Assembly (NCBI GenBank): GCA_020632215.1 | Contig: JACKFZ010000006.1 | Coordinates: 12,574-76,573 of the forward strand | Reading direction: 5' to 3' | From: Candidatus Nomurabacteria bacterium | GTDB lineage: Bacteria > Patescibacteriota > Minisyncoccia > Phycocordibacterales > JAACPR01 | Length of the DNA: 64,000 bases | Shown: positions 644-35,931 of the stretch, one piece after another | How positions within the stretch are numbered: the stretch's first letter is position 1 | Layout of the letters: every line of letters starts with the position of its first letter | Program-made: the position numbers and the translations under genes | The notes under the pieces: model-generated | What the model was told of the DNA's origin: nothing | What the model saw: the letters and a program-made list of their open reading frames with translations, nothing else | Database searches by the model: none

Positions 644-757
644 GTCATCCCCGATTCGCCTACGGCGAATCGGGGATCTCGCTCAATTACAGAAAGTGCC
701 TGAAGTTCTCGGGATTCCAGAACAACCTGCCTGCAGGCAGACAGGGTCTGGAATGAC
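644..757. repeat. GTCATCC...GGAATGAC palindromic intergenic element (family P, long form)
   Basis: Left arm gtcatcc-ccgattcgcc-tacg-ggcgaatcgg-ggatctcg; right arm tctggaatgac. Nested hairpins. Confidence 0.6.
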
Positions 758-837
758 AATACGTGCCTAAAGTTGTACGAGATCCTGACCGCGTCTGATG
801 CGGCAGGAAGACGGTAATTTTAATTATCAATTATGAA

Positions 838-1824
838 TTAGACCACAAAATCATCTAGAGAGTAGCTCTCTTCATCATCTTTCTGTTTCTCCTCGTCACT
901 TCTATCATCAGATAGTTCTACCTGTTCATCTTCTGGCTCTTTTTCCACTCCCAGATTGTCATTATTAACAACATTATTTGAAACTTCTACTTCTTTATTC
1001 AAAACTGCCAAGATTTTTTTCAAATCATCTTCATTGAAATAGTCTATTTGTATCTTTCCTCCTACTTCTTTTGGCTCTATGTGAACTCTAGTTCCAAGTG
1101 AGTCACTAGCTTGTTGTTCCATCTCTACAATATCTGGAGAAAACATTCGATCTTTTTTACGAACTTTGTCATAGGCTATTTGTCTAGATATTCTCTCTGC
1201 TTCCCGAACAGTCATTTTTTTCAAAAGAATTTCTCGGAATAAAGTACTTTGTTCTTCTGGTCTATCGATAAGCATTAAGAGAGGACGAGTATGTCCTTCA
1301 GATATTTTTCCTTCTGCAAGAGCGTTGAGTATTTCTTCTGACAACATTAGCAGACGCAAGGTGTTTGATACATATTCCCTACTCTTTCCGACTTTTTTGG
1401 CAACATCAACATGTTTCAATCCAAATTCGTCTACCAATTGTTTGAAAGCTCTGGCACGATCTACAGCGTTCAAATCCTCTCTTTGTAAGTTTTCAATGAT
1501 GGCCAGTTCTAGTTTCACTCTATCATCATCTTCTTGAGAACGAATAAGGACTGGCACTTCACGCAAGCCTGCAAGTTTTGATGCTCTTAATCTTCTCTCC
1601 CCAGAAATAAGTTCGTATTCCACTGCCAAACCACCATCATCTTTCTGATATTCTTTTCTAGTAACAACCAGAGGCTGTAAAACGCCATACATACGAATAG
1701 AATCTGACAAACTTTTCAACGGTCCTTCATCAAACTCCTTTCTAGGTTGATACGGGTTTGGCTTTATTTTTTCAACTTCTACAAAATAGACTGAATTGTC
1801 CTGAAATGCTGTGTTGTTGTTCAT
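838..1824 (-). CDS. parB: ParB/Spo0J-like partition protein with an acidic C-terminal tail
   Basis: Has the ParB N-terminal box (KIKPNPYQPRKEFDEGPLKSLSDSIRMYGVLQPLVV) and a helix-turn-helix region. The ORF track extends to 1881, but the likely start is the Met of MNNNTAFQ. The C-terminus is an acidic low-complexity tail (EDEQVELSDDRSDEEKQKDDEESYS). Confidence 0.8.
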   Translation of the reverse strand: MNNNTAFQDNSVYFVEVEKIKPNPYQPRKEFDEGPLKSLSDSIRMYGVLQPLVVTRKEYQKDDGGLAVEYELISGERRLRASKLAGLREVPVLIRSQEDDDRVKLELAIIENLQREDLNAVDRARAFKQLVDEFGLKHVDVAKKVGKSREYVSNTLRLLMLSEEILNALAEGKISEGHTRPLLMLIDRPEEQSTLFREILLKKMTVREAERISRQIAYDKVRKKDRMFSPDIVEMEQQASDSLGTRVHIEPKEVGGKIQIDYFNEDDLKKILAVLNKEVEVSNNVVNNDNLGVEKEPEDEQVELSDDRSDEEKQKDDEESYSLDDFVV

Positions 1825-1876
1825 AAGTAGAAAAATTGTAACATAATTAGAATGTAGTATGAAGAATGTAGCACCA

Positions 1877-1926
1877 GTCATCCTGAACTTTGGCGCGAGC
1901 CTGTCGAGCGTTAAGGATTCAGGATC
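1877..1926. repeat. family P palindromic element (short form)
   Basis: Termini gtcatcctgaac and ttcaggatc. Confidence 0.6.
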
Positions 1927-2118
1927 TTTTTAAAATGATCTTACATAGCATGTTTACTCCTTACATAACTACAGAATGACACAGTTGCTACTTTCCCATT
2001 TTAAGTTATTATGTCTGACACAACAAAGTTTTGCCGAAGTGGCCAAAAGTATTAGCTGGTAGACGCACAGGTGCCCTTTGTCGCTAAAGTTTGTAAGATT
2101 AAAGAAAACGTATTACTT

Positions 2119-2200
2119 GCCGGAGTGATGAAATTGGTAAACATGCACGACTCAAAATCGTGTGCCGCAAGGCTTGTGGGTTCAAGTCCCACCTCCGGCA
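2119..2200 (+). tRNA. tRNA-Leu (anticodon CAA)
   Basis: Cloverleaf read by eye. The acceptor stem pairs gccggag with ctccggc. The anticodon stem-loop is cacga-cTCAAAa-tcgtg, giving anticodon CAA. It has a long variable arm (gccgcaaggcttgtg) and a T-arm GGTTCAAGTCC. The track ORF 2071..3105 spuriously reads through it. Confidence 0.75.
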
Positions 2201-2208
2201 CTATTTCA

Positions 2209-3105
2209 ATGAACAAACCAAAGATTTTAGTCATACTAGGACAAACAGCCACTGGTAAAAGTGATTTGGCTGTTGATTCAGCCAAGACATTTCATGGTGA
2301 AATTATCTCTGCTGACTCCAGACAAGTATATAAAGGGCTTAATATCGGTTCTGGAAAGATTACCAAAAAGGAAATGAAAAAAGTGCCACATCATTTACTT
2401 GATGTCCTTTCTCCAAAAAGGACTTTCTCTGTCTCTCAGTTTCAAAAGAAAAGCACTAAAATCATCAAGGATATTTTTAAAAAAGATAAATTACCTATCA
2501 TATGTGGTGGCACCGGTTTTTATATTCAATCAATAGTTGATGATCTCTCAATTCCCACTGTTAAGGAAAATAAAGAATTAAGAAAAAAATTAGAAAAATG
2601 GAAAACTGAGAAACTTTTTGAAACATTAGAAAAACTTGACCCTGAACGAGCTCAGAGTATTGATAGAAACAATAGAGTGAGATTGATTAGAGCTATAGAG
2701 ATAGTAAAGAGTATTGGTAAAGTACCAAAGATTAGAAAAAGTAGTCCCTATGATGTTCTCCAGATTGGACTAGAATGGCCAGATAATATTTTGAAGAAGA
2801 GAATAAAGGATAGACTTTTGAAAAGAATAAAGAGTGGAATGATAAAAGAAGTAAAAGATTTACATAAAAATGGTTTGTCTTGGAAAAGGATGGAGCAATT
2901 GGGATTAGAGTATAGGTATGTCTCTTTGTTTTTACAAAACAAAATATCTAAAGAAGAAATGATTGAAAAACTAAATACTGAAATATGGCATTACGCCAAA
3001 AGACAAAAAACTTGGTTTAAGAAAGATAAGAGAATAAAGTGGTTTTCTCCAAAAGAGGTTAGGAAGATAGAAAAAGAGATTAAAGGTTTTCTCTTATCAA
3101 ACTAG
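2209..3105 (+). CDS. miaA: tRNA dimethylallyltransferase
   Basis: P-loop sequence ILVILGQTATGKSDLAV followed by SADSRQVYKGLNIGSGK, typical of MiaA. The start was reset to the first ATG after tRNA-Leu. Confidence 0.85.
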   Translation: MNKPKILVILGQTATGKSDLAVDSAKTFHGEIISADSRQVYKGLNIGSGKITKKEMKKVPHHLLDVLSPKRTFSVSQFQKKSTKIIKDIFKKDKLPIICGGTGFYIQSIVDDLSIPTVKENKELRKKLEKWKTEKLFETLEKLDPERAQSIDRNNRVRLIRAIEIVKSIGKVPKIRKSSPYDVLQIGLEWPDNILKKRIKDRLLKRIKSGMIKEVKDLHKNGLSWKRMEQLGLEYRYVSLFLQNKISKEEMIEKLNTEIWHYAKRQKTWFKKDKRIKWFSPKEVRKIEKEIKGFLLSN

Positions 3106-3511
3106 CAACAGCTTGTAATTCTTCTTCCGGACTATCTTCCCTGCTACCTGGTCTATATAGAAACTTCCTAGGCTCATATTCCGTAATACCTGTATCCCCT
3201 TCTTTTCTCGGTAAAACATGAAGATGAAAGTGTGACACAGATTGACCTGCAATAGCTCCATCATTCCAAGCATAGTTAAAACCCGTAGCATCAAAAGTCT
3301 TCATCGATGCTTCTTTTATTTTCAATCTTAAATCATCAATAGCCTCTTGTTCCTCTTTACTTAGTTCATCAAAACTAGCAATACATCTCTTGGGAGCTAT
3401 TAGAATATGTCCTGGGACAATAGGAATATTTGTCAAAAAAGCCCATGCCAAATCGTTAGACAGAACTTCCCTTTCTTTAATCTCTGGAATTGTGCAAAAT
3501 GGACAAGACAT
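3080..3511 (-). CDS. HIT-family (histidine triad) hydrolase
   Basis: Contains the HFHLHVLPR histidine-triad motif. Convergent with miaA and overlaps its 3' end by 26 nt. Confidence 0.8.
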   Translation of the reverse strand: MSCPFCTIPEIKEREVLSNDLAWAFLTNIPIVPGHILIAPKRCIASFDELSKEEQEAIDDLRLKIKEASMKTFDATGFNYAWNDGAIAGQSVSHFHLHVLPRKEGDTGITEYEPRKFLYRPGSREDSPEEELQAVASLIRENL

Positions 3512-3513
3512 GA

Positions 3514-4362
3514 TTATTTTTTTCTCACATCAAAATATATGCGATATTTTTCTACTTTGTAAGTTTCATCTTCAAAAACATTAAATATTAAATTACCATC
3601 TTTATCTATAAAAAAGTTAATAGTGCCAGAAAACATATTTTCAAATTCACTTTCTTGTGCATCTTCACAATAAGCCAAAGTCGTCATCAGAAGATTAATA
3701 ACAATTCTATTAGCACTGAGACTAAATGTCCCTCCTTTACTGTTACAGTCTGTGCTAATACTAATACTGCCATCATCTGAAAAGTTTAAATTAAATAAAT
3801 CTGGATGATCTGGGTATATATCAGATCCATCATTTACCTCTGCATGATTCCATCTAAAAGTATGCTGCGCAAAGTATTCTATATTTTTTTCATTTACCAA
3901 ATCATCAGAATCTTTATATGATTCAAAAATTATTTCACCATCTTTTTTAACAATAAATTTTCCAGCTTCAGATGTTACTTCAATATTTTCTTTTGTATTT
4001 ATAAATGTAGTGTTACTAATAACATCCAAATTTAAATCATATATATTTTGTCCTGGCATATCTAACACAACAACATCAGATGTGGCGAAAAAAGTTAAAA
4101 TCAGCTCCTCATTTGCCTGTGAAAAATAATGTTCAACTGATGTGTAGATATCTTCTGGTTTTGTTTCATCAGTAATACCAGGTGGTAGGTTTTGATTCAC
4201 ATCAGATTCACCTTCTTCGTAGATCTCAACATTCGCAGACTGATCTTTGTTGTATTTATCAAAAACAAAATCCTCATAAGGATTGCTATTTAAGTAGTTG
4301 AAAAAGAAAAAAGCTGTAACAACTAGTAGAAATAAAATTATATAAATAATTAATCTTTTCAT
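3514..4362 (-). CDS. hypothetical membrane-anchored or secreted protein
   Basis: N-terminal transmembrane/signal segment (LIIYIILFLLVVTAFFFF) with an acidic extracytoplasmic body. No recognisable motif. Confidence 0.45.
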   Translation of the reverse strand: MKRLIIYIILFLLVVTAFFFFNYLNSNPYEDFVFDKYNKDQSANVEIYEEGESDVNQNLPPGITDETKPEDIYTSVEHYFSQANEELILTFFATSDVVVLDMPGQNIYDLNLDVISNTTFINTKENIEVTSEAGKFIVKKDGEIIFESYKDSDDLVNEKNIEYFAQHTFRWNHAEVNDGSDIYPDHPDLFNLNFSDDGSISISTDCNSKGGTFSLSANRIVINLLMTTLAYCEDAQESEFENMFSGTINFFIDKDGNLIFNVFEDETYKVEKYRIYFDVRKK

Positions 4363-4364
4363 GA

Positions 4365-5111
4365 TTATCTCTTTATTACATCAGCTACTATAGCATAATG
4401 ATCACTGACTCCAGTCTCAAAATACATATTTTTTATCTCATATTCTGGTGTAGAAAAAAGTCCATCAACCATATATGGTAAATAACCAGCCCGATGTAGA
4501 TTTGCATCCAAGCTAGTTTCGTATTTTGGATCTATGTTATCTTTATATTTAGAAGATATTATTTCAAAAATTTCCATACCGCGTGGTGCATTAAAGTCAC
4601 CACAAACTACAAGCTCAGAAAGATTCTCTAAACTATTCATTAATCCACCAATATGTTCTTTTTGAAAATTATCTGCCACACCATTCTCACTTTTACAAAA
4701 ATGTGTCGTTGCAATTCTAAAAGAACTATCTCCTTTTTTAAAATCAGCAGACAAAACTACCATAGCTAAATCAGTAAATATACCTTGTCTGTATATCTTA
4801 ATATTTTCTATATCTCTAAAATAATACTCTTTCCTTTCATTATTCTTTTCAAGATTGGAAATAATAGCAATACCAAAATTCCTATACTCAGTCTTTAAAT
4901 GATCTTCCCTTTTCACTTCTTTATAAAACATATTTCCAAACTGATACTGACCTCCGACCTTTTTGGCAAAATCTTTAGCATCATCTTCAAAAACCTCCAT
5001 CATGCACAATACATCAGGTTTAATTCTATCTATTAAATTATTGATCTTATCTAAATGTCTTTTTCCTTCTATATTTACTGAAAGTAGTTTTAAAGGGTCT
5101 TCTCCCGACAT
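4365..5111 (-). CDS. endonuclease/exonuclease/phosphatase (EEP) family protein
   Basis: EEP signature residues GDFNAPRG and C-terminal SDHYAIVADV. Confidence 0.6.
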   Translation of the reverse strand: MSGEDPLKLLSVNIEGKRHLDKINNLIDRIKPDVLCMMEVFEDDAKDFAKKVGGQYQFGNMFYKEVKREDHLKTEYRNFGIAIISNLEKNNERKEYYFRDIENIKIYRQGIFTDLAMVVLSADFKKGDSSFRIATTHFCKSENGVADNFQKEHIGGLMNSLENLSELVVCGDFNAPRGMEIFEIISSKYKDNIDPKYETSLDANLHRAGYLPYMVDGLFSTPEYEIKNMYFETGVSDHYAIVADVIKR

Positions 5112-5194
5112 ATAATTCCATATATTCTAACAAAAAAATTATGTGCTGGCGATTTACTGATTTGATTTATTTTGATAGAGTAAATGGCCATACA

Positions 5195-5265
5195 GGGCGA
5201 TTAGTTAAGTGGCATAATAGAGGTCTCCAAAACCTCGGTCGGGGGTTCGATTCCCTCATCGCCCG
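5195..5265 (+). tRNA. tRNA-Trp (anticodon CCA)
   Basis: Acceptor stem gggcgat/atcgccc. Anticodon arm gaggt-cTCCAaa-acctc gives anticodon CCA. T-arm GGTTCGATTCC. Confidence 0.75.
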
Positions 5266-5267
5266 CA

Positions 5268-5294
5268 TAAAATAAGATCCCCACTTTCGCGGGG
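5268..5294 (-). terminator. GC hairpin (ccccgcgaaagtgggg on the minus strand) followed by a T-rich tract; likely terminator shared by rpmG and tRNA-Trp
   Basis: Palindrome 5279-5294. Same hairpin family as the one at 7072-7087. Confidence 0.45.
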
Positions 5295-5359
5295 ACAACC
5301 AAAAACATAGTCGTCACGTAAAAACAGCTTCGCTGTTCACATGACCTCCTTGTTTTTGT

Positions 5360-5515
5360 TTACTTCTTAGTTTCCTTCCAAACAGTCTTCTTTCGGAGTC
5401 TAGGGTTATATTTTTTAAGCTCCAGCTTCTTTTCAACTGTTTTTTTGTTCTTTCGTGTATAGCGAATATCGCCTGTTTCTGAACACTTTAGTTTTACTAG
5501 TTTATCTTGAGACAT
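5360..5515 (-). CDS. rpmG: 50S ribosomal protein L33 (51 aa; too short for the ORF track)
   Basis: Manual translation of the reverse strand gives [51 protein letters not shown]. This matches the L33 pattern (Cys..Tyr-T-K-N-K.., LELKKYxPRxRKHT). Confidence 0.75.
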
Positions 5516-5651
5516 ATTTTTAGTCCCTACAGACTATCAGACTACGCTAAAAAAGCAAGTTTCCGAGCCATACTTTATCTATATTTCATCATTGACATTA
5601 GTATGAAATGCTGATATAATATGAAAATAATCAATAAATTAAGTAAAAATC

Positions 5652-7025
5652 ATGTTTAAGAGCATTTTATCAAAAGTATTGTTTGTAATCGGGATAATTA
5701 TAATCCTTGTCGTTTTGGCTTGGGCTATTATCAATTTTGTCCCTGTTATATTCTCAGGTCTAGCTAATGTCGGATCTTCAATCGGAAATATTTTCAAAAA
5801 TAAAAATGAGGCAATAGAAGTAGTAGTAAATGATACTGAGCTGGTAGACGGGGAAGACTTTAATGTTCAATGGAGTCTGGACTCAACTGAAAATGGTACT
5901 TACTCTCTATCCTACACTTGTGTAGAAGGACTTCTTTTTGAAATCACTATTGGTGACTCAACAAAAAGAATGATTTGTAATACACCTCTTTCTTTGCCAT
6001 CAGATATTAAGGAAGCTGATATAAAAACTATTTACAAAAAACCTAATTCTTTTGATGATGTTGAACTAATTGTATTCTTCACACCTGATGGACAAACTAA
6101 CTATGAGTATGCAGGAAAAACTTCTTTAACTGTTAAGAATAGTTCAGGGACTGAAAACTCAGATTCACCATCGGATAGCTCGGGAGACCTTTCAGCTTCT
6201 TCGCTTTCTAGCGAACCAGCAGAGAGTGATAACACTACAACTACTGAAACCAGTGCAACTTACACAAGCCAGCCTACTTACACATACAGAACAACTTACT
6301 CAACGCCTGCTGACCTAGCAATATCAAATATTGTTTCAATTCCTGGTAGATCAACTGTTCAATTCACAGTTGCTAATATCGGTGGCAGAAGTACAGGAAA
6401 CTGGCAACTTGCATATACAAACCCAACAACACCAATAACAACGGAGTACTCTCCCCTACAACCATCTCTGGCTCCAGGCCAATCTTTAAGATTTACACTT
6501 GCGTTCACAGAACAAAGTGCTCCTTCAAATACAATCTCAATTTCTGTTGACCCAGGAAATGTTGTATCTGAATCTTCAGAAAGTAATAACTTTGCTACTG
6601 CTATAGTTACTGGAAACTATGTTCCAAACAATAATAATGGATCATACAATCCTAATGATAATGCTGATCTAGAAATCGTTTCAGCAGAAATAGGTAGAGT
6701 TTCTGGTGGTAGATTTATCGAAGACGACAGAGTTAATGATGGTGACGACGTAGTTCTACACTTCCGAGTTTTGAACCGAGGTGGTGAATCTACAGGAAGT
6801 TGGAGATTTGAAATTACTCATACTCCTTTTGATAGCAATGATGATTACAGATCAAGCAGACAAAATTCTCTACGCCCTGGTGAGTATATGGATCTATATG
6901 TAGATTTTGACAATGTAGATGAGGGAGATTATAGAATCAGAATTGAAGTTGACTCTGACGATGATGTAAATGAGGAAAGAGAAAATAATAATACTGAGAC
7001 TGTTGATCTAGAGGTTAGAAATTAA
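5652..7025 (+). CDS. secreted or membrane-anchored protein with tandem CARDB-like domains and a Ser/Thr-rich linker
   Basis: N-terminal transmembrane segment, then an S/T/D-rich low-complexity linker. Two related ~100-aa repeats follow (ADLAISNIVSIPGRSTVQFTVANIGGRSTGNW and ADLEIVSAEIGRVSGG...VLNRGGESTGSW), which resemble CARDB domains. Confidence 0.55.
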   Translation: MFKSILSKVLFVIGIIIILVVLAWAIINFVPVIFSGLANVGSSIGNIFKNKNEAIEVVVNDTELVDGEDFNVQWSLDSTENGTYSLSYTCVEGLLFEITIGDSTKRMICNTPLSLPSDIKEADIKTIYKKPNSFDDVELIVFFTPDGQTNYEYAGKTSLTVKNSSGTENSDSPSDSSGDLSASSLSSEPAESDNTTTTETSATYTSQPTYTYRTTYSTPADLAISNIVSIPGRSTVQFTVANIGGRSTGNWQLAYTNPTTPITTEYSPLQPSLAPGQSLRFTLAFTEQSAPSNTISISVDPGNVVSESSESNNFATAIVTGNYVPNNNNGSYNPNDNADLEIVSAEIGRVSGGRFIEDDRVNDGDDVVLHFRVLNRGGESTGSWRFEITHTPFDSNDDYRSSRQNSLRPGEYMDLYVDFDNVDEGDYRIRIEVDSDDDVNEERENNNTETVDLEVRN

Positions 7026-7071
7026 ACTCAATGTCTTCCTAAAGAAACTAAAAGTCACCTACTACCTCTGT

Positions 7072-7095
7072 CCCCGCGAAAGCGGGGATCTTTTG
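7072..7095 (+). terminator. intrinsic terminator: ccccgc-GAAA-gcgggg hairpin followed by TTTT
   Basis: Perfect 6-bp GC stem with a GAAA tetraloop at 7072-7087 and a T-run at 7091-7094, lying 45 nt after the stop of the 5652..7025 ORF. Confidence 0.65.
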
Positions 7096-7276
7096 TGATA
7101 TTCAGAGTCTCTTTAGAAAGTTTATGAGAATGTAGAATGCGTGCCCCATATAGCGAAGCTTGTTTGGGGTAGTTTGTAGAATAGTTATTAAAAATCATAC
7201 AAACAAGAAAAACTGTCGTGTTAACTGCACGATTTTTTGTATTAGACAAAAATCAATCAATATTGTAGTATCGCAA

Positions 7277-7552: not shown

Positions 7553-7589
7553 CGTGATAGTCTGCCCGACCAATCAAAAAACTTTTTAA

Positions 7590-7616
7590 AAAAGTCCTCC
7601 CCGGAGGCACTTTTTA
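7590..7616. terminator. A-run / imperfect GC hairpin / T-run, probably a bidirectional terminator
   Basis: aaaaaagtcctccccggaggcacttttt lies between convergent genes at 7277..7552 (+) and 7618..8028 (-). Confidence 0.4.
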
Positions 7617-7617
7617 T

Positions 7618-8028: not shown

Positions 8029-8043
8029 AATTTATATATAATT

Positions 8044-10101
<2,058 letters not shown>

Positions 10102-12954: not shown

Positions 12955-12957
12955 GAT

Positions 12958-20087: not shown

Positions 20088-20127
20088 TTAGTAAATAGTA
20101 AATAGTAAATAGTAAATAGTAAAGTAG
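20088..20127. repeat. heptanucleotide tandem repeat (TAGTAAA) x5
   Basis: Sequence gttagtaaatagtaaatagtaaatagtaaatagtaaagtag. Confidence 0.8.
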
Positions 20128-22687: not shown

Positions 22688-23145
22688 AGTGGGTAATAGT
22701 ATACATAAAAAGCTGAAGTGTGCAATCAGTCAGAATGTAGAACTTAGTATCTAGAATGTAGAATGTAGTTTGTAGGAAATAGCGTTCAGAAGTCAACGAC
22801 CAGCTTTCAGAAGTAGTTGTCTTGTCACCAAGGTTTGCGAAATGCAATTGATTGTTTATCTGAATTTGCAAGGATTTTAGTCATAAGCTTATCTTCCCCT
22901 TCTCAAAATAAAACATCTCCTCCTGGACAAACAGAGTCAACATGTTGGTTTTATTTGTTAAGACAATCGAATCTATCTTTACCGTTTTCTAATATTGAAA
23001 AACCACATATTTTATAAAAGTCTGATTTATTATGATTATAAAAACCAATAGCTGTTTTACTAGCTTCTTCTTTATATTCTTTGATCTTCTCCATAATCGA
23101 AATCTTTCATAGATGTTACTTTTTCTACATTCTATATACTACATA

Positions 23146-24792
23146 CTACATTCTAGTAATATGCTTCTCCATATACTCTTTACTACCTCCCACCTTCTTC
23201 CCAGGATTAAAAATATTATTTGGATCAAAAATATCTTTAACCGTCTCAAAGAGTCTATAAACTTCTTTACCAAACATTTCTTCTAAATATGGTGTTCTCA
23301 CTATCCCATCATTATGTTCAGCAGTAATAGTTCCTCCATATTCAATCACTAGTTTATAAACTTTATCAGCCACAATTCTAATCTTATCTCTTTCTTCTTT
23401 CTTATCTAGCTCCATCAGAGGAATGATGTGTAAATTACCACTACCAGCATGGCCGGCAATATTCACTTTGACATCATGTTCTTTGAGAATAGCTAAAAAC
23501 CTTGGCAAAAATTCGGGTAACTTATCAGGAGTAACACAGATATCATCTATAAACGGAGCGGTTTTTTTTCCTTTTACTTTTTGTCTTAATAGATTGAAAC
23601 TTTCGCGTCTCATAACCCAATACTTTTCAGCATCCTCATGGTCTCTAGAAACTCGATAAAGAAGTTTTTGTTTGTCCAATACTTCCTTAATCACTTTTAC
23701 TTTATTGTCCATGGCTGCCTCAGTTTTCTCAGAAATTTCCAAGAGTACAATAAGTTTTGGTAATCCCATCATTCTTATTCCAATAAAAACTTCGGGCAAA
23801 AATTTCCAGGCAAAAGATAAAAAGTTCATGCCGACTTTTTTGGCAACTTCAGGCATAAATCTCAATCCCAATTTCAAAGTTGTATCGTCAAATGTTTCCA
23901 TACTTTCTAGTTTCAATGGTAATAATTCATTGACCAATATTGGCAGATCATTCCAATTATCCAAAAAAACAGCTACCAATTTTTCATGATCATTAGACTC
24001 CACCAAACGCATTTCTGCTTCGGTTAACAAGCCCAAAGTTCCTTGTGAACCTACAAAAAGTTGTGTCAGATCAAAAGTACCAGCTTCTCTATTGTAAACA
24101 TCCCACAATGCATAACCGGAAGAATTTTTTGTTACTTTTGGTTTGGCTTTTTGAATCAAATCGTAATTTTTATCTATCAAATCAAACATTTGACGATATG
24201 TCTCTCCCTCAAAATCAGTTTGAGATTTCTTTTTTTCTAATTCCTCCCTATTCAACTTTTTGAACCTATATTCCTTTCCATTTGCCAAAACCATTTTCAA
24301 ACCCAAAACAAAGTTTCTGATCTGACCATAGCGCAAAGTTTTTTCTCCTCCACAGTTATTCATAATCATGCCACCAAGAGCAGCTAAAGATTTTGAAGCT
24401 GGATAAACAGGCATTGATATATGTTGTGGCAAAGTATCTTTTTCAAAAGTTCTAAAAAAAATTCCTGGTCCCACAATGGCTCGCAAATCTTTGACACTAA
24501 TATCTTCCTTTTTAAAATATCTTGTAAAATCTAGAATAATACCTTCATTGATGGCTCCTCCTGACATATCAGTACCAGCCGATCTACCAGTAATTGAAAG
24601 GTTTTTGTAATTCTTCTTATTCTCATTTACAAAAGAAACAATTTTGGAAACATCTTCTGTATCTTTTGGAAAAGCAACTATCTGGGGACGCACCTCGAAC
24701 AGACTAGCATCATGACTATATTTAGAAAGTGTCTCATTGTCTGCTAATACTTCTCCTTTTATAACTTTGGATAAATCGTCAGCAAGTGACAT
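23146..24792 (-). CDS. FAD-linked oxidase (GlcD / D-lactate dehydrogenase-like)
   Basis: FAD_binding_4-like N-terminal half (RSAGTDMSGGAINEGIILD) and a C-terminal FAD-oxidase domain. Confidence 0.7.
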   Translation of the reverse strand: MSLADDLSKVIKGEVLADNETLSKYSHDASLFEVRPQIVAFPKDTEDVSKIVSFVNENKKNYKNLSITGRSAGTDMSGGAINEGIILDFTRYFKKEDISVKDLRAIVGPGIFFRTFEKDTLPQHISMPVYPASKSLAALGGMIMNNCGGEKTLRYGQIRNFVLGLKMVLANGKEYRFKKLNREELEKKKSQTDFEGETYRQMFDLIDKNYDLIQKAKPKVTKNSSGYALWDVYNREAGTFDLTQLFVGSQGTLGLLTEAEMRLVESNDHEKLVAVFLDNWNDLPILVNELLPLKLESMETFDDTTLKLGLRFMPEVAKKVGMNFLSFAWKFLPEVFIGIRMMGLPKLIVLLEISEKTEAAMDNKVKVIKEVLDKQKLLYRVSRDHEDAEKYWVMRRESFNLLRQKVKGKKTAPFIDDICVTPDKLPEFLPRFLAILKEHDVKVNIAGHAGSGNLHIIPLMELDKKEERDKIRIVADKVYKLVIEYGGTITAEHNDGIVRTPYLEEMFGKEVYRLFETVKDIFDPNNIFNPGKKVGGSKEYMEKHITRM

Positions 24793-26328: not shown

Positions 26329-26497
26329 TTTCTGGTTTAAGGCGGCAGAACCTAATGCTTGCCAACTGGCCAAAACCCCAAAACCCGGTACACTCTGAAC
26401 CTCCAAGGTTCTGGGCTAGGCCGGATTTTTATTTAAGCCAAATCAATTTTTCTGCCAGAATCTAGAATTTAGTATGTATAGTTGATATATTACTTTT

Positions 26498-26543
26498 CTA
26501 CATACTACATACTACATACTACATACTACATTCTACATACTAA
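26498..26543. repeat. heptanucleotide tandem repeat (CATACTA) x5-6
   Basis: Sequence ctacatactacatactacatactacatactacattctacatacta. Confidence 0.8.
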
Positions 26544-26561
26544 ATAAGTTATAATTTTCAC

Positions 26562-28084: not shown

Positions 28085-28086
28085 AT

Positions 28087-29144: not shown

Positions 29145-29182
29145 TTTTGACCTGTGGATAGAATTTCATAAAAAATTTAGGG

Positions 29183-30178
29183 CTATTTCTTACGCAAAAT
29201 CACTTTATGCACCGCTTCTATAATATGACTTTTATCCATTCCATAATGTCCAATTAGCTCGTTAGGTGTCCCAGATTGACCAAAAAGATCTTTCACTCCA
29301 ACAAACTCTTGTGGTACTGGATAATTTTTTGCCAAACACTCAGCGACCGCACTTCCCATTCCTCCAGCAATTTGATGTTCTTCTACAGTGACAATAGCTT
29401 TTGTACTTTTTGCTAATTCAATAATTGCGCTGTCATCAAGCGGTTTAATTGTCGCTAAATTCATGACAGTCACTTTCACTTTTTTCTCTTCTAAATCTTT
29501 AGCTGCTAACAAAGCTTTGTGTAAAAGCGCTCCAGTAGCAATTATCCCAACATCAGACTGACCTTCTGGTTGATAAAAAATTGAAGCTTTGCCTATTTCA
29601 AATGGGGTATCTTCTGTGGTCATCACAGGTGTTTTTTCTCTAGCTAAACGAATATATGTCGGCTCCTTGGTTTGTATACAAGCTAATGTAGCTTTCTTTG
29701 CTTCAAGAGCATCACAAGGTGAAATAACAACCATATTTGGAATAACTCTGGTGATGGCGATGTCTTCAATAGCTTGATGTGTTCCCCCGTCTGGACCAAC
29801 AGAAACACCAGCATGGCTTCCTGCAATCTTTACCGGCACATCGTTATAACAAATAGTGGTACGAATCTGCTCCCAGTTTCTCCCAGGAGAAAACATAGCA
29901 TATGAAGAGATAAAAGGAATTTTTCCCATTGCTGCCATCCCAGAAGCAACTGAAGCTAAGTTTTGTTCTGCTACCCCAATTTCAATAAATCTTTCAGGAA
30001 ACTTTTTGGCAAACTTATCCATCTTGGTAGATTCTGTTAGATCAGCACAAAGACCAACAACTCTCTCGTCTTTTTCTCCAGCTTGCAATAAACCCTCACC
30101 AAAACCAAGACGAATAGCTTCTTGCTCAACGTCCTCTAAAAAAATATTTGGATTTAATTTTTGTTTATCGTTTAACAT
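29183..30178 (-). CDS. transketolase, C-terminal (pyrimidine-binding) subunit
   Basis: FIEIGVAEQNLASVASGMAAMGKIPFISSYAMF together with a C-terminal transketolase_C region. Confidence 0.85.
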   Translation of the reverse strand: MLNDKQKLNPNIFLEDVEQEAIRLGFGEGLLQAGEKDERVVGLCADLTESTKMDKFAKKFPERFIEIGVAEQNLASVASGMAAMGKIPFISSYAMFSPGRNWEQIRTTICYNDVPVKIAGSHAGVSVGPDGGTHQAIEDIAITRVIPNMVVISPCDALEAKKATLACIQTKEPTYIRLAREKTPVMTTEDTPFEIGKASIFYQPEGQSDVGIIATGALLHKALLAAKDLEEKKVKVTVMNLATIKPLDDSAIIELAKSTKAIVTVEEHQIAGGMGSAVAECLAKNYPVPQEFVGVKDLFGQSGTPNELIGHYGMDKSHIIEAVHKVILRKK

Positions 30179-30875
30179 GTTTTCTCCATATTGTAGCTAA
30201 TGTATGTCGAACATAAGACTTACCATGCATTATACCTTCTTTTTCTTTATCCAATAACATCTCTAATGAAAAAAAGTTGCTCATTTCTTCAACTAATTCT
30301 TTCAGGTCAAATAATACGCTACCAACATCAATCTCTGGATCAATAATCTTTTTTAACTTGCCACCATTTTCGATAATTGGGCATTGGCCGTAATATCCAT
30401 CGTCCTTATAAGCCAGTGACACAAGAAACTTCCCATCTTCTTTAAGAACCCTATTGGCTTCAGATCTATAAAACTTTCTGACTTCATCATCAACTTGATG
30501 TTTATAGACAAAAGTATCGGAAATAAAATCAATCGTTGAATCATCTACTGGTAATCCACTACTTAAATCTCTAACTTCAAATGTAATATTATTACTTTCT
30601 GTATTTAACCTACTATTAGCTTTTTGAATTGCACTTTTTGAAATATCAAAACCAATAACCCTTGAGCCCAAACTGTTTATAAATATAGAATTTCTTCCTG
30701 TACCACAACCAACATCTAAACTATTTTTAGGATATTCATTCTTAGAAATAAATTTCCAATTACTCATAGCCCAAATCAATGCCCCAGAAGGCTCTTCTTT
30801 AATACTTGATGGAATGCCTTGTTTTGAATACTCTTTGTCCCATTTTGAAGAATGCTCTTCATTACTCATGATCAT
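30165..30875 (-). CDS. class I SAM-dependent methyltransferase
   Basis: Motif I LDVGCGTGRNSIFI. Inserted between the two transketolase halves and overlaps both by 14 nt. Confidence 0.7.
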   Translation of the reverse strand: MIMSNEEHSSKWDKEYSKQGIPSSIKEEPSGALIWAMSNWKFISKNEYPKNSLDVGCGTGRNSIFINSLGSRVIGFDISKSAIQKANSRLNTESNNITFEVRDLSSGLPVDDSTIDFISDTFVYKHQVDDEVRKFYRSEANRVLKEDGKFLVSLAYKDDGYYGQCPIIENGGKLKKIIDPEIDVGSVLFDLKELVEEMSNFFSLEMLLDKEKEGIMHGKSYVRHTLATIWRKHVKR

Positions 30876-31761
30876 TACAAGTTATTTTCCCTCCTAAAGT
30901 TCGAAGTCTTTTCAAAGCTTCCGTTGCTTGTTCATCTTTTTTATATACATCCTCTGGCCCCTTACCTGGCGGATTTCCATGCCATTCAAATCTTCTTTCC
31001 ATAAAATCAACACCTTTACCAGGAATAGTGTGAGCAATGATAACAGATGGCATATCAAAAACTGTTTTAGCTTGACTAATGGCATCATCAATAGCTTCAA
31101 AATTGTGTCCGTCTATTTCAATAACGTGCCAATTGAAACTTTCAAATTTCTCACTTAATTTTTTGAGTGGCATTATATCTTCCGTAAATCCATCTATTTG
31201 AATATTATTTCTATCAATAATCATTATGAGATTATGTAATTTTTCCTTTGCTGCCAACATTACAGCTTCCCAATTTTGTCCTTCATCTAATTCCCCATCA
31301 CCCGTTAGACAGTAAACAAACTTATTAGAAGTTTTTCCTTCATCAATTCTAATTGCCAATGCCATACCTACAGATTGTGACAAACCAGAACCAAGTGGTC
31401 CCGAAGATGTTTCCAATGCTGGCAAAAATTCTCTGTGAGGATGGCCTTGCAACTTGGAACCAAATTTTCTTAAAGTCTTTAAATCTTCTATTGGAAAATA
31501 CCCCGAATGCGCCATTGTTGCGTAAAGAACAGGACAAATGTGCCCATTTGATAAAACTAGTCTGTCTCTTTGTTCCCAACTAGGATTCTTTGGATCATGT
31601 TTCAATGCATGAAAATATAAATAGGTAAAAATGTCTGCCATGCCCAATGGTCCAGCAGTATGTCCAGATCCAGCTTCTATCAGCATTTCTAAAATAGATT
31701 GACGAATATCATTAGCTTTCTTTTGCAAATCGCAAACTTGCTCATCAGTGATGTTTCCCAT
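30862..31761 (-). CDS. transketolase, N-terminal (thiamine diphosphate-binding) subunit
   Basis: GHTAGPLGMADIFTYLYF...GDGELDEGQNWEA. Confidence 0.85.
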   Translation of the reverse strand: MGNITDEQVCDLQKKANDIRQSILEMLIEAGSGHTAGPLGMADIFTYLYFHALKHDPKNPSWEQRDRLVLSNGHICPVLYATMAHSGYFPIEDLKTLRKFGSKLQGHPHREFLPALETSSGPLGSGLSQSVGMALAIRIDEGKTSNKFVYCLTGDGELDEGQNWEAVMLAAKEKLHNLIMIIDRNNIQIDGFTEDIMPLKKLSEKFESFNWHVIEIDGHNFEAIDDAISQAKTVFDMPSVIIAHTIPGKGVDFMERRFEWHGNPPGKGPEDVYKKDEQATEALKRLRTLGGKITCNDHE

Positions 31762-31793
31762 AATAAGAAATTATAACTTAGTTACACAAGACC

Positions 31794-31887
31794 GTCATCC
31801 CAGACTTGGTCTGGGATCTCGTCAACTTAATTATCTAAAGTTTTTCGAGATCCTGAAAATCCTCTGCTACGCAGGGTTTCAGGATGA
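31794..31887. repeat. family P palindromic element (long form)
   Basis: gtcatcc-cagacttggtctgg-gatctcg ... cgagatc-ctgaaa...tttcagg-atgac. Confidence 0.65.
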
Positions 31888-31895
31888 CAACTCAA

Positions 31896-32591
31896 CTACT
31901 TATTCGCCAATCTTTCTAATTCATCTATTGTTCCCTTCACATCTCCAGATTCAAATATTAGAGATCCAGAAACAATTCTAGTTACACCAGCTTTTACTAA
32001 ATCTTGAACATTATCAAAGTTAACACCACCATCTATTGAGATTGGAATTTCTTTATTTTTATTTCTAAAATCCGCAATATTATCCAAAACACTTTCTTGA
32101 AATTCTTCTCCTTGAAATCCTATCCTTTCGATTCCCATAAACTGGACGGCATCGTAGTAGCCTTCTAGTTTCTCTAACAAATCAAGATTGTCTCCAATAT
32201 TTATAGCAATCGAAATTTCCACCAAACCTTCTGCTTTTATTTTTTTTATAAAATCAAAATCTTCTTCTTTTTTTAATGTTTTCAGATGAACAATTATTCT
32301 CGAAACTCCAACTTCAATCCATTTTGGAATTTCTTCTACTGGATTAGCAATCATCATATCAACTTCAAAATTTACATTTTGCCAATGTGGTAATCCTTCA
32401 TCTTGATGTATTAGTTGATCAAAATGGCTTTTATCACTATATGGCCAACTAATAGAACGAGTTAATTTTCCATCCATAACATCTACTTGTACCCATTCAG
32501 TATGATGATTAACTAAATTTAATTTTTCTACCAAATCATCAAAGTCGTCTGGCATTATGGCTGGTATGATTTCTATTTTCATTTTATTCAT
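31896..32591 (-). CDS. rpe: ribulose-phosphate 3-epimerase-like protein
   Basis: VQVDVMDGKL near the N-terminus and a TIM-barrel-sized protein. Its pentose-phosphate neighbours (rpiB, tkt) support the call. Confidence 0.6.
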   Translation of the reverse strand: MNKMKIEIIPAIMPDDFDDLVEKLNLVNHHTEWVQVDVMDGKLTRSISWPYSDKSHFDQLIHQDEGLPHWQNVNFEVDMMIANPVEEIPKWIEVGVSRIIVHLKTLKKEEDFDFIKKIKAEGLVEISIAINIGDNLDLLEKLEGYYDAVQFMGIERIGFQGEEFQESVLDNIADFRNKNKEIPISIDGGVNFDNVQDLVKAGVTRIVSGSLIFESGDVKGTIDELERLANK

Positions 32592-32605
32592 TTTAATTTT
32601 TAAAA

Positions 32606-33103
32606 TTAAAACATTGAGTCAATCTCTTCATTTCTTCTTCTATGTCTCTCCTCACCAGAAAAAGCAGTTTCTAACCAAAGAGTTACGGCTTCCTCTGCTT
32701 CTTCATTATTCAAAAATCTAGCACCCAAACTTAGAATGTTCGAATCATTATGTTCTCTGGAAATAACAATTTCATTTGGCACTTCTCTACCATCTTGAGG
32801 TTCATATTGACCATTAAAAACTACCGCTCTAATACCTGGGAATCTATTGGCCATAATAGCTTCACCTTGTCCCGAACCTCCAAGAATAATTCCTCGTGAT
32901 TCATGATCTATTGCCACAGCTTGAGCTACTGCTGCCACAAACTCAGGATAATCATCATCTTCGTCATATTCAAAATTACCATGATCAACTACTTCATAAT
33001 GTTGTTTTGATAAAAAATCTTGCAAATGTTCTTTCATCTCAAAACCAGCGTGATCAGACGCTAAGTATATCTTTGTAATGTTTTGCATTGAATTCTCGTT
33101 CAT
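32606..33103 (-). CDS. rpiB: ribose-5-phosphate isomerase B
   Basis: KIYLASDHAGFEMKEHL...GILGGSGQGEAIMANR. Confidence 0.8.
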   Translation of the reverse strand: MNENSMQNITKIYLASDHAGFEMKEHLQDFLSKQHYEVVDHGNFEYDEDDDYPEFVAAVAQAVAIDHESRGIILGGSGQGEAIMANRFPGIRAVVFNGQYEPQDGREVPNEIVISREHNDSNILSLGARFLNNEEAEEAVTLWLETAFSGEERHRRRNEEIDSMF

Positions 33104-33188
33104 AAATTAGTATGTAGAATGTAATATATAGAATTTAGAATGCCTGCCCCGTATATCGAAGCTTGTTCGGAGCAGTATGTAGCTTCCG

Positions 33189-34220
33189 TCATCCTGAAAC
33201 AACTACACTCCCTGTCTTTATTACATGCTCTACTAATGAGTTAGTATACCCAATTTCGTTATCATACCAAGCCAATACCTTAACCAGATCACCATCTACC
33301 ACTTTTGTAAATGATAAATCAGCAATAGAGGCGTGGGTATTACCGACAATATCCTGAGAAACTATTGGCTCATCAGTAACCGCAAATATACCCTTCCACC
33401 TATCTTCTGTCGCTGCTTTTTTTAATATTTCATTTACTTTTTCAACTGTTGTTTTCTTTTTTGATATAAAAGTAATGTCAGCTATAGAACCAACAGGTAC
33501 TGGCACTCTGAGAGAAATTCCATCAAATTTACCTTCTAAACTTGGCAAAACTTTTGTAGTAGCAATTGCCGCACCAGTTGTTGCAGGAATAATATTCAAT
33601 GCAGCCGCCCTACCAGAACGCAAATCTTTTTTAGCTGGGCCGTCAACCAGAGATTGAGAAGCTGTGTATGCATGCACAGTATTTAAAACAGCTTTCTTTA
33701 TCCCTAACCCCTCACTTAGAATTGTCATAACCGGACTTCCTGCGTTTGTTGTACAAGATGCATTTGAACTCACAACGCAAGTAGCAAACTTATCTTCATT
33801 AACTCCCATCAAGATAGTTCCTTCACTTTCTCCACTTGGATCATCTTTGGCAGGTGCTGAAATAACCACTCGCTTTGCTCCAGCCATAACATGAGCTCTG
33901 GCATCAGCAAATTTTGTGAAAAATCCTGTAGATTCAACCACCACATCTATTTTCATTTCACCCCATGGAAGTTTAGACGGATCTTTTTCTTGAACTACTC
34001 TTACCAAATGTCCGCCAGCAATGATGTTTCCATCTTTCACTTCTACCTCAAATCCAGAACGTCCGTAGACAGAATCATATTTCAAGAGATAAGCTAGATT
34101 ATCTATATCACCTAGATCATTGATGGCGACAATCTCTATTTCTTCTCTTTGTTGAGCTAACTTAAAAAAAGCTCGACCGATTCTTCCAAAACCATTAATG
34201 GCAACACGAATTTTACTCAT
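33189..34220 (-). CDS. gap: glyceraldehyde-3-phosphate dehydrogenase
   Basis: Rossmann MSKIRVAINGFGRIGR and the catalytic SNASCTTN. Confidence 0.9.
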   Translation of the reverse strand: MSKIRVAINGFGRIGRAFFKLAQQREEIEIVAINDLGDIDNLAYLLKYDSVYGRSGFEVEVKDGNIIAGGHLVRVVQEKDPSKLPWGEMKIDVVVESTGFFTKFADARAHVMAGAKRVVISAPAKDDPSGESEGTILMGVNEDKFATCVVSSNASCTTNAGSPVMTILSEGLGIKKAVLNTVHAYTASQSLVDGPAKKDLRSGRAAALNIIPATTGAAIATTKVLPSLEGKFDGISLRVPVPVGSIADITFISKKKTTVEKVNEILKKAATEDRWKGIFAVTDEPIVSQDIVGNTHASIADLSFTKVVDGDLVKVLAWYDNEIGYTNSLVEHVIKTGSVVVSG

Positions 34221-34353
34221 AATAAAAAGCAGTGGTTATTTGTAATGGTTTTATTATAGCAAGGTTAGGTAGTAGATAATAGGTAATAGTGAATAGTAAA
34301 AGCTGTCAGAAGTCAGCGGTCAGCTTTCAGAAATAGCATTGTATTACCACACA

Positions 34354-34397
34354 GTCATCCTGAAACCCTGGAGTGAAATGGAAGGGGTTTCAGGATC
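34354..34397. repeat. family P palindromic element (short form, 12-bp stem)
   Basis: gtcatcctgaaaccc / gggtttcaggatc. Confidence 0.65.
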
Positions 34398-34414
34398 TTT
34401 TTAATTGAAACTTT

Positions 34415-35821
34415 TTATTTTAGTTCTTCTAAAAACAAATCTTTCAAAATCTGTGGATTAGCACTTCCTTTTGTTTCTTTCATACCTTGCCCTATTAAAA
34501 ACTGTAGAGATGCTTCTTTTCCTCCCTTATACTCTTCAACCACTTTCTGATTATCATTGATAATCTTTTGAACAATTTCTTTCAAAGCACCTTCGTCACT
34601 TTGTTGTAACAAACCTTCTTTCTCCGCAATCTCTTTAGGATCTTTGTCCTCTTTGACCATCATAGCTAGAATGTCTTTTGCACCTCTAGAAGAAACCTCA
34701 TTAGCCATAATCATCTTTATCAAATTAGAAAAGTTCTCTGCTGAAGGAAGTTGTCCTCCTTCTTTTCGTAGAGAAACTAGATCAGAAGTAATGTAGTTAG
34801 AAGTTAATTTTATAAAATCAATGTCTGTAGTATCACCGACAATCTGATCAAAGAACTGAGACATCTCAAGATCAGAGACAAAAATATCAGCAGCTTCTTC
34901 ATTTAAACCAACCTCAACCGTCAGTCTTTCTTTCTTCTGCCATGGTAGTTCTGGTAATTGCTCTTTTAAAGCATCTAAATTAAAAACTTCATGTAGCATC
35001 ATTTTTGGCAAATCTGGTTCTGGGAAATATCTGTAGTCATCTGATGTCTCCTTTCTTCTTTGTGAAAAAGTTATTTCTTTATTTTCATCCCATCCTCTAG
35101 TTTCTTGAACAATTTCATCTCCTCTTCCTGCTTCTAGAAGCTCTGTCATTCTTTTTATTTCATATTCAATAGATTTTTCTACAACCTTGAATGAATTTAG
35201 GTTTTTAATCTCAACTTTTGTACCAAGTTCTTTTGTATCACTCAGAGAAATATTCACTTCCACTCTCATTTCTCCTTTTTCCATATTAGCGTCACCAGCG
35301 CCTAGATATCGCAATAACATTTGTAAATTCTTTGCAAAATCTACTGCTTGTTTTGCAGAATGAATGACTGGCTCTGTCACAAGTTCCATTAGAGGTATGC
35401 CCGCACGATTGTAATCTACTAGAGAAAAATCTCCCCTATCATGCTTAGACAAACCTGTATCTTCTTCTAGGTGAATTCTGGTAATTTTAACACCATTAAT
35501 TTCTCCACCAGAAACAATAGGATACTTATACTGACTAATTTGGTATCCTTTTGGAATATCCGGGTAAAAATAATTTTTTCTATCAAATTCAGTAAAGTTG
35601 GCAATTTCTCCTCCAACTGCTAAACCAACCTTTATTACATGTTCAACCGCCTTTTTGTTGATAGTAGGCAAAGTTCCAGGATGACCCAGATCTATAGGAT
35701 TTATATTAACATTTGGTCTTTCCTCATCAGGGTTATTTTTAGCATTAGAAAACATTTTAGAATTTGTTTTCAATTCAGCATGGATCTCAAGACCAATAGT
35801 TGGAGTATATTTTGATAACAT
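34415..35821 (-). CDS. gatB: aspartyl/glutamyl-tRNA amidotransferase subunit B
   Basis: PTIGLEIHAELKTNSKMFS N-terminus and a C-terminal GatB/YqeY domain. Confidence 0.85.
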   Translation of the reverse strand: MLSKYTPTIGLEIHAELKTNSKMFSNAKNNPDEERPNVNINPIDLGHPGTLPTINKKAVEHVIKVGLAVGGEIANFTEFDRKNYFYPDIPKGYQISQYKYPIVSGGEINGVKITRIHLEEDTGLSKHDRGDFSLVDYNRAGIPLMELVTEPVIHSAKQAVDFAKNLQMLLRYLGAGDANMEKGEMRVEVNISLSDTKELGTKVEIKNLNSFKVVEKSIEYEIKRMTELLEAGRGDEIVQETRGWDENKEITFSQRRKETSDDYRYFPEPDLPKMMLHEVFNLDALKEQLPELPWQKKERLTVEVGLNEEAADIFVSDLEMSQFFDQIVGDTTDIDFIKLTSNYITSDLVSLRKEGGQLPSAENFSNLIKMIMANEVSSRGAKDILAMMVKEDKDPKEIAEKEGLLQQSDEGALKEIVQKIINDNQKVVEEYKGGKEASLQFLIGQGMKETKGSANPQILKDLFLEELK

Positions 35822-35931
35822 GGAGAAAATATATCAAATACTTGATAAAACACAAATTCTTGCTTCGTCATCCTGAACCATGTACTAAACTTGATTCAGT
35901 ATTGATTCAAGATACCGTACAGCTTAGGCAC

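Follow-up and report, generated by a model that had tools for sequence, protein, structure and literature searches.

The 64-kb stretch of DNA analysed in this study, 64,000 nucleotides of contig JACKFZ010000006.1 from a Candidatus Nomurabacteria bacterium (hereafter the window), carries a family of short hairpin-forming repeats at six intergenic sites. Two of these sites lie near the start of the window, around parB and a tRNA-Leu gene, and the others lie among tktN, rpe, rpiB, gap, gatB and a histidine-kinase-like gene. The window genes are mostly on the minus strand, which by G/C skew is the G-rich, leading strand. There are eight repeat units (U1 to U8) and one half unit, and these are probably repetitive extragenic palindromic (REP) sequences of the CGTC-tagged class, to which the dRS3/NTS sequences of Neisseria and the Ssn-related motifs (SRM) also belong. 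Loci from other sequences are denoted here by L followed by a number.

When both strands are read, the repeat unit is a single DNA hairpin in which an unpaired head, (C/T/A)GTC, is followed by a stem, a loop and an unpaired tail led by C. The first two stem pairs are A-T and then T-A, the closing arm ends in AT, and the tail reads CTCG, CTTT or CCCG, usually beginning CTC. Units are 29-51 nt long and able to stand alone. The head is CGTC in U1, U3, U5, U8 and the half unit, TGTC in U2 and U6, and AGTC in U4 and U7. GTC stands directly 5' of the palindrome in all eight units, a 3' C is found in seven of the eight, and the AT...AT stem start is likewise found in seven, with U3 having TT instead. 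The stems of U1 and U7 are 14 and 13 bp long, U2, U4, U6 and U8 have outer stems of 8-9 bp around loops of 17-30 nt, and U5 is readable as 9 bp with a 3-nt loop or as 8 bp with a 5-nt loop. The long forms are inverted groupings of these units, U5 with U6, and U1 with U2 followed by U3, in which the heads point outward and the tails GGATCTCG and CGAGATCC face one another. Paired units differ in their stems (CCCAGAC versus CCTGAAA, for example); conservation within a pair extends to the head, the tail and the capacity for stem formation, and not to a terminal inverted repeat.

Table 1. Window coordinates of the hairpin units, the half unit and the heptamer arrays
Feature	Position	Strand	Description
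U1	643-681	+	CGTC-ATCCCCGATTCGCC-TAC-GGCGAATCGGGGAT-CTCG; 14-bp stem; from sequence and DNA fold
U2	712-758	-	TGTC head at 758-755; loop holds inner hairpin CCTGCCTGCAGGCAGACAGG; from DNA fold
U3	778-814	-	Degenerate; CCGTC head at 814-810; first stem base A changed to T; one bulge; tail CGAGATCC at 778-785
U4	1876-1926	+	Solo; AGTC-ATCCTGAA-(30-nt loop)-TTCAGGAT-C, then TTTTTAA; between divergent parB and tRNA-Leu
U5	31793-31821	+	Compact, canonical; CGTC-ATCCCAGAC-TTG-GTCTGGGAT-CTCG; left member of inverted pair
Spacer	31822-31845		24 nt, AT-rich; separates tails of U5 and U6
U6	31846-31889	-	Inverted partner of U5; CGAGATCCTGAAA-(loop)-TTTCAGGATGACA; starts 8 nt past rpe stop codon
Half unit	33187-33198	+	CGTCATCCTGAA; head and 5' arm only; no hairpin possible
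U7	34353-34397	+	Solo; AGTC-ATCCTGAAACCCC...GGGGTTTCAGGAT-C, then TTTTT; 18 nt past gatB stop, 134 nt before gap start
U8	35866-35905	+	Decayed full unit; CGTC-ATCCTGAA-(17-nt loop)-TTCAGTAT-T; 7/8 stem pairs; between histidine-kinase-like gene and gatB
Heptamer arrays	20089-20123, 22731-22782, 23121-23155, 26494-26546, 33107-33142, 45204-45258		

This parsing differs from the initial annotation of the window. The motifs that it reported do sit where it placed them, but it described a long element with GTCATCC...GGATGAC termini, whereas the real unit is the single hairpin and the window contains no match to GTCATCC-N(10-40)-GGATGAC. The first such element, given as 644-757, extends from 643 to 814 and is made up of the three units U1, U2 and U3, and the terminus at 757 reads GGAATGAC. 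Two supposed copies ending in GGATGAC (1877-1926 and 34354-34397) are single hairpins, GTCATCCTGAA...TTCAGGATC, which end in GGATC and are followed by TTTTTAA. An inner gatctcg/cgagatc pair is indeed present, but its two halves are the tails of two units in inverted orientation. The sequence at 35866-35878, taken for a half copy, is the 5' part of the decayed full unit U8, and the half copy that was noted at the gap stop codon is a true half unit. The palindrome GTCACG...CATGAC at 5311-5345 was weighed as an additional copy but not counted, having an imperfect stem and the wrong tail.

The repeats are real and non-random. The GTCATCC heptamer alone is not significantly enriched in the window (8 copies versus 4.3 expected, a count reached in 8 of 100 shuffles). 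The 11-mer TTCAGGATGAC is present in five exact copies versus 0.05 expected, and none of 100 shuffles equals that number. Also, GTCAT followed by a stem of at least 8 bp and a C was observed six times in the window, compared with a mean of 0.51 and a maximum of 3 in 200 dinucleotide shuffles. Every site is intergenic, while intergenic DNA makes up about 8.5% of the window. The G+C content of the units is 49-64%, except for the decayed U8 (38%), in a window of 35.6% G+C.

Five of the six sites start 0-27 nt past the stop codon of the upstream minus-strand gene, these genes being parB, rpe, gap, gatB and the histidine-kinase-like gene, and the sixth site is that of U4. Such a position is what would be seen if the repeats worked at the RNA level, as intrinsic terminators or 3'-untranslated-region stabilisers of the upstream genes, with their similarity reflecting selection for that role. 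Terminator prediction flagged U1, read on the minus (sense) strand and followed by GACGGTTTTTT, as a terminator-like site after parB, and Di Nocera et al. (PMC3733652) argue for the transcription of many REPs. However, a sense-strand T-run is found at one of the six sites only, with those of U4 and U7 confined to the antisense strand. U4 is placed between divergent genes, the half unit forms no hairpin, a terminator needs no invariant GTC head and C tail across about 20 phyla, and the units are missing from the corresponding spacers in relatives. An RNA-level role is thus an unlikely explanation for the family, and it could coexist with a CGTC-REP identity as a side effect.

Genomes related to the source of the window provide a view of how stable the units are. 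The same-strain contigs (L001-L004, L210-L213), with 98.8-100% identity to the window, show no presence/absence polymorphism of units and are uninformative. Of the different genomes found, the nearest is L205, which has a Gap protein of 85% identity and keeps the gene order gatB-gap-rpiB-rpe. There is no unit in its gatB-gap spacer, in its gap-rpiB spacer or in the first 63 nt past its rpe. L206 and L208 (76% Gap identity) have no units at all, and their gap-rpiB spacers are 6-9 nt long versus 85 nt in the window. Because the units are absent from the corresponding spacers in the nearest available relatives, sequence comparison indicates that they are lineage-specific additions, gained in this lineage, and not conserved regulatory structures. 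Another Nomurabacteria locus, L008, carries four units and one half unit within 7.3 kb, and more distant Patescibacteria have units with other stems, such as GTCATTCCCGCGGAGGCGGGAATCCAG in L139.

This comparison bears on the possibility that TTCAGGATGAC is an operator or promoter element of a central carbon metabolism regulon, given its presence upstream of gatB, gap, rpiB-rpe and tktN. A 4-kb stretch holds four copies, at distances of 33-134 nt upstream of successive minus-strand genes. Furthermore, the head of U5 read on the minus strand (ATGACG) resembles a -35 hexamer and is followed after 17 nt by TATAAT upstream of tktN, with the box 9 nt before the tktN start region (31770-31798), and this pair is the top sigma-70-like match in the 31-36.5 kb region (10 of 12 positions). 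However, L205 and L206 retain the gap promoter TTGCTATAAT (TTGYTATAAT, some 35 nt ahead of the ATG) but not the motif 100 nt further upstream. The distance from motif to start codon varies, and the motif is also present at parB and in at least 120 loci beside unrelated genes in many phyla. A promoter role of TTCAGGATGAC was rejected because the conserved gap promoter lies elsewhere, and since units are missing at the L205, L206 and L208 sites, TTCAGGATGAC is neither the gap promoter nor a conserved operator. The regulon explanation as a whole is extremely improbable.

The effects of the repeats on neighbouring genes would rather be by-products of where units came to lie, namely a stop codon for gap, a -35-like hexamer at tktN, and a hairpin with a T-run after parB. 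The TGA of the half unit (33191-33189, minus strand) is the gap stop codon, and the C-terminus of Gap reads ...VVVSG* in the window versus ...VVIS* in L205. At tktN, the promoter-like match suggests that the U5 repeat may have created part of the promoter.

It was also considered that the long forms are genes for structured non-coding RNAs, with a cloverleaf-like three-hairpin junction closed by GUCAUCC/GGAUGAC. At minimum free energy, 31790-31892 folds into a closed three-way structure (z score of -5.8), but the two strands fold equally well (-22.2 and -22.5 kcal/mol) and the centroid structure splits into independent hairpins. The two long forms are also built from different numbers of units in different orders, a conserved promoter was not seen, and there was no Rfam match. 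In the window and 20 related loci tRNAs alone reach the Rfam gathering threshold, and a search of 31700-36000 at E values up to 10 returned two sub-threshold chance matches only (a snoRNA and a CRISPR-repeat model). Inspection by eye for ribozyme cores, the hammerhead included, likewise gave no match. Since both strands fold equally well and units also occur alone, a structured RNA gene has hardly any likelihood.

The same hairpins are found far outside this lineage. A scan of one genome per species for the pattern GATCCTGAA-N(8-38)-TTCAGGATGAC matched at least 120 loci, whereas roughly a few tens would be expected by chance in the entire collection. The matches listed span roughly 20 phyla, among them Bacteroidota, Pseudomonadota (including Vibrio), Campylobacterota, Spirochaetota, Acidobacteriota, Elusimicrobiota, Armatimonadota, Ignavibacteriota and Atribacterota. 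About 25 of these loci, or approximately one fifth, are from Patescibacteria, also known as the candidate phyla radiation (CPR), and four or five of the matches listed are chance matches inside the coding sequence of glyQ. The compact units of the listed loci have an 8-bp stem and a 5-nt loop (CTTGA, CTTGT or TTTAT). In 193 such units among the matches listed, a pyrimidine precedes GTC in 90%, the first pairs are AT in 87% and the tail is C in 90%. For 60 distinct units among the matches listed, in an alignment pre-selected for at least six of eight paired positions, both-sided changes were found at seven of eight stem pairs (114 cells), and the covariation score was 0.62 versus 0.21 in shuffles and at most 0.17 with the partners slid.

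These units from elsewhere resemble those of the window in several respects. A covariance model made from units of other phyla, with U1 excluded, finds U1 (26.8 bits, E value of 2.5e-4) and has weak matches at U3 (778-813, minus strand, 9.9 bits) and U8 (35883-35901), with no further compact unit in the window. About 29% of the listed pattern matches have an inverted partner no more than 130 nt away with the heads outward, as in the composites of the window. In addition, the inner hairpin of U2, CCTGCCTGCAGGCAGACAGG, recurs in unit loops of L007, L024, L098 and L100, which are from Falkowbacteria, WWE3, Salegentibacter and Bacteroides.

A separate feature of the wider family is that full units are followed in many phyla by tandem half units, consisting of a 6-10 nt spacer and TTCAGGATGAC repeated two to five times with a period of about 18-21 nt. 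Of 125 listed pattern matches, 45 contain or precede such half units; an example is L036:700-3500, and others are in L023, L026, L037, L042, L078, L104, L122 and L123. No description of these arrays was seen in the available parts of PMC3733652 and PMC11893778. Such arrays may be the trace of cutting and repair recurring immediately 5' of the head. A further observation concerns L076 (contig DATKWX010000042.1), which is labelled Candidatus Bathyarchaeia and on which a typical unit precedes a partial half copy. Either the contig is bacterial and was mis-binned, or the hairpin family occurs, rarely, in archaea.

Some of these hairpins lie beside genes for small GIY-YIG proteins. A jackhmmer search, seeded with a YhbQ-like sequence used as a probe only, found small GIY-YIG open reading frames (ORFs) in 10 of the 120 listed hairpin loci, with 11 matching ORFs including one that is truncated. 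All six of the neighbouring GIY-YIG ORFs submitted to Pfam hit PF01541, and searches of NCBIfam and PDB sequences gave no specific name for these proteins. Three or four of the genes in the 120 listed loci are bracketed by hairpins on both sides. In L045 (Vibrio), L053 and L025, a gene of about 95 codons lies within the arrangement GTCATCCTGAA-loop-TTCAGGATCTC...gene...GAGATCCTGAA-loop-TTCAGGATGAC, with the heads outward. These brackets have the exact head, arm and tail of the window units, and the layout is that of 31793-31889, except that the 24-nt spacer is replaced by a gene. The downstream unit of the gene in L110 is of the same kind, and its gene-proximal upstream unit is a GTCATTCCGAAC variant. 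Going by sequence, the window units share the exact recognition-relevant positions with the hairpins that bracket Ssn-like genes elsewhere. The protein subfamily adjoining the TCCTGAA hairpins is very large (at least 7,987 matches at E values up to 1e-10). CPR bacteria encode such GIY-YIG proteins as well: in L093 (Moranbacteria) the gene is separated by about 210 nt from a pair of units, and annotated close homologues are found in Moranbacteria, Levybacteria and "Patescibacteria group".

The inverted pairs, together with GC-rich sequence in an AT-rich genome and a patchy distribution, are also features expected of classical miniature inverted-repeat transposable elements (MITEs) that belong to a DDE transposon and are bounded by GTCATCC terminal inverted repeats, or of REPINs mobilised by a RAYT. 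The initial annotation had compared the repeats with MITEs, and this likeness survives in part, as the inverted pairs resemble a hairpin-GIY-YIG-hairpin cassette that lacks its gene, but there is no element with long terminal inverted repeats. The arms of a pair have only head and tail in common and differ in stem sequence, a single hairpin is already a complete unit, and the RAYT tag GTAG is absent. Target-site duplications, which the initial annotation proposed to look for, are not visible at the composites. The window has neither a DDE nor a Y1 transposase, and none is enriched near the 120 listed loci, where all-against-all clustering of neighbouring ORFs returned housekeeping families only. 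Mobility as a MITE or REPIN is therefore very unlikely, if somewhat less so than a regulon or an RNA gene.

The CGTC-REP identity of the window repeats rests on the match of their anatomy and location with the definition in PMC3733652, and the units are members, or close variants, of that class. By analogy with Neisseria and Wolbachia, whose homologues have been demonstrated to cut in this way, the head, hairpin and C in single-stranded form would be the recognition site of a small single-domain GIY-YIG single-stranded DNA (ssDNA) endonuclease (Ssn), and the enzyme would cut a few nucleotides 5' of the head. A cognate Ssn-type nuclease would be encoded elsewhere in the genome, or would formerly have been present. 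The units would have spread as non-autonomous copies of a hairpin-ssn-hairpin cassette, or would persist as relics of it.

Several points weigh against this interpretation. Only U5 has the canonical stem of 8-9 bp with a loop of 3-5 nt, and the rest have loops of 7-30 nt or stems of 13-14 bp. The published SRM pattern, HGTCWYN(0-2)YYVSBRHN(0-5)WNVSBRGN(0-2)RNCYNB, has no match in the window, although the same expression matches the Neisseria NTS. Pfam and jackhmmer searches of the window and of an adjoining 3.8 kb past its start found no GIY-YIG gene and no Y1 or DDE transposase, and the sole recombinase in the window, a large serine recombinase, belongs to an unrelated island. The putative placement of the neighbouring proteins with Ssn (cd10448) follows from Pfam PF01541, size and context. 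The pre-selection of the alignment behind the covariation count and the lack of visible target-site duplications at the window composites also count on this side. To our knowledge, the multiplication of CGTC REPs has never been shown experimentally in any species.

A broader proposal, which is possible but is put forward tentatively, is that the inverted pairs are gene-less miniatures of a mobile hairpin-ssn-hairpin cassette, that the TCCTGAA-stem subfamily has moved between distant phyla (Vibrio, Bacteroidota, Atribacterota, CPR and others), and that the repeats together with an Ssn nuclease would gate the survival of incoming ssDNA as NTS and SsnA do in Neisseria. DNA uptake in CPR bacteria depends on type IV pili, ComF and DprA. 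The window has a type IV pilus cluster at 39073-46386 (PilM, PilO, two T2SSE ATPases of the PilB/T type, and PilC) and a ComF-like phosphoribosyltransferase gene at 46411-47067, and DprA is encoded just beyond the window start (L212:10388-11254). Because these genes share a contig with the repeats, an ssDNA-uptake setting is plausible, though this is context and not evidence.

Other repeats and islands were seen in the window. Heptamer arrays (TAGAATG, TAGTATG, TAGTAAA and their complements; Table 1) are intergenic and usually just upstream of genes. They appear to be older than the hairpin units because L205 carries similar arrays in the corresponding spacers. Two small intergenic repeat families adjoin heptamer arrays, and one copy of each adjoins a CGTC unit or half unit. 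The first (7127-7179 and 33130-33182, 85% identical) can form a hairpin TGCCCCN...GGGGYA around an AAGCTT core, and the second (22778-22816 and 34298-34336, 82% identical) can form a hairpin AAAGCTG...CAGCTTT. Near-identical GC-rich hairpins at 5267-5297 (GATCCCCACTTTCGCGGGGA) and 7069-7099 (TCCCCGCGAAAGCGGGGATC), inverted and 1.8 kb apart, bracket a gene for a 457-aa CARDB-domain protein, and the one at 7069-7099 is followed by TTTT and looks like the terminator of that gene. Finally, a defence and integrative island at 49647-60634 contains a type I restriction-modification system (HsdR 50462-53608, HsdS 53611-54741, HsdM 54719-56299), GmrSD (56302-58068), a small XRE-like ORF and the large serine recombinase (58904-60634), which overlaps a tRNA-Ser gene (60401-60491). 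The island has exact inverted repeats of 193 nt (49652-49844 / 58467-58659) and 134 nt (58656-58789 / 60273-60406), and same-strain contigs from other assemblies break at 60462. It could be an invertible segment or an assembly artefact.

CGTC-tagged REPs were defined by Di Nocera, De Gregorio & Rocco (2013, BMC Genomics 14:522; PMC3733652). In that paper, they have a CGTC or TGTC tag (also CCTC), AT first stem pairs, stems of 8-9 bp, loops of 4-5 nt and a short tail with the consensus CCA, and deviant loops are noted in some species. They are described there as mostly inverted dimers located after upstream ORFs, sometimes giving stop codons, with no dedicated transposase, and the superfamily is said to include dRS3 of Neisseria (CGTC-1) and RPE-4 and RPE-6 of Rickettsia. 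Compared with this description, the window units have the same CGTC or TGTC head, AT-start stem and C-led unpaired tail, the same frequent inverted dimers (spacers of 20-100 nt) just past upstream ORFs, termini that supply a stop codon, no dedicated transposase, and several stem variants in one genome. The REP-like character proposed for them at the outset was sound, as the units show most of the defining features, while the proposed likeness to BOX and Correia elements was the wrong comparison. The disagreements with the published description are that U5 is the only unit fitting the stem and loop sizes given, the others having longer stems (13-14 bp) or larger loops (7-30 nt) with secondary hairpins inside, that the tail is CTC or CTT and not CCA, that two units have an AGTC head, which is unlisted in the paper, and that CPR is absent from the five phyla listed there.

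The paper by Chenal et al. (2025, Nat Commun 16:2388; PMC11893778) gives the NTS as CGTCATTCCCGCGMAVGCGGGAATCYRG and redefines half of the dRS3 copies as NTS. According to it, SsnA is a GIY-YIG protein of 94 aa that binds the NTS solely as ssDNA and cuts a few nucleotides upstream; binding depends critically on the C past the palindrome, and cutting on the three bases (GTC) ahead of it. It also states that such motifs typically flank ssn genes in an insertion-sequence-like NTS-ssnA-NTS arrangement, and that the meningococcal system modulates natural transformation. The window units share with the NTS and SRM so described the directional layout CGTCAT-palindrome-ATC-YNG, and heads and arms of the window type flank genes for single-domain GIY-YIG proteins of about 95 aa on both sides in Vibrio and other genomes, as in NTS-ssnA-NTS. 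The published SRM pattern, by contrast, demands a GC-rich stem and a short loop and fits none of the window units, and no ssn gene is present in the window. The GTAG REPs and REPINs are a more distant parallel. They too are tagged hairpins in inverted doublets, and their system also has recognition of an ssDNA hairpin by a small nuclease with a repeat-flanked gene; however, the tag is GTAG and not CGTC, and the enzyme is an HUH Y1 (RAYT) transposase and not a GIY-YIG nuclease. Neither enzyme was found in the window, with no Y1_Tnp match among its ORFs in Pfam.

The initial annotation had presented these repeats as possibly undescribed for small CPR genomes, which overstates their novelty. The family itself has been known since 2000 (dRS3), 2013 (CGTC REPs) and 2025 (NTS/SRM and Ssn) from many phyla, but novelty may stand for its occurrence in CPR, as no paper describing CGTC-type repeats in CPR/Patescibacteria was found, and a literature search by raw sequence strings returned chance primer matches only. 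No new kind of system is revealed by these repeats. For annotation, they account for several GC-rich intergenic islands, the altered C-terminus of Gap and a possible hybrid promoter. The gene-less inverted pairs mirror the hairpin-ssn-hairpin cassette, which bears on whether that cassette is a mobile element. In comparison with the known systems, what is new is modest: a Nomurabacteria (CPR) genome joins the hosts of CGTC-tagged, Ssn-type hairpin repeats, and an AT-richer, large-loop subfamily, which is common in many phyla, lies outside the published SRM pattern.

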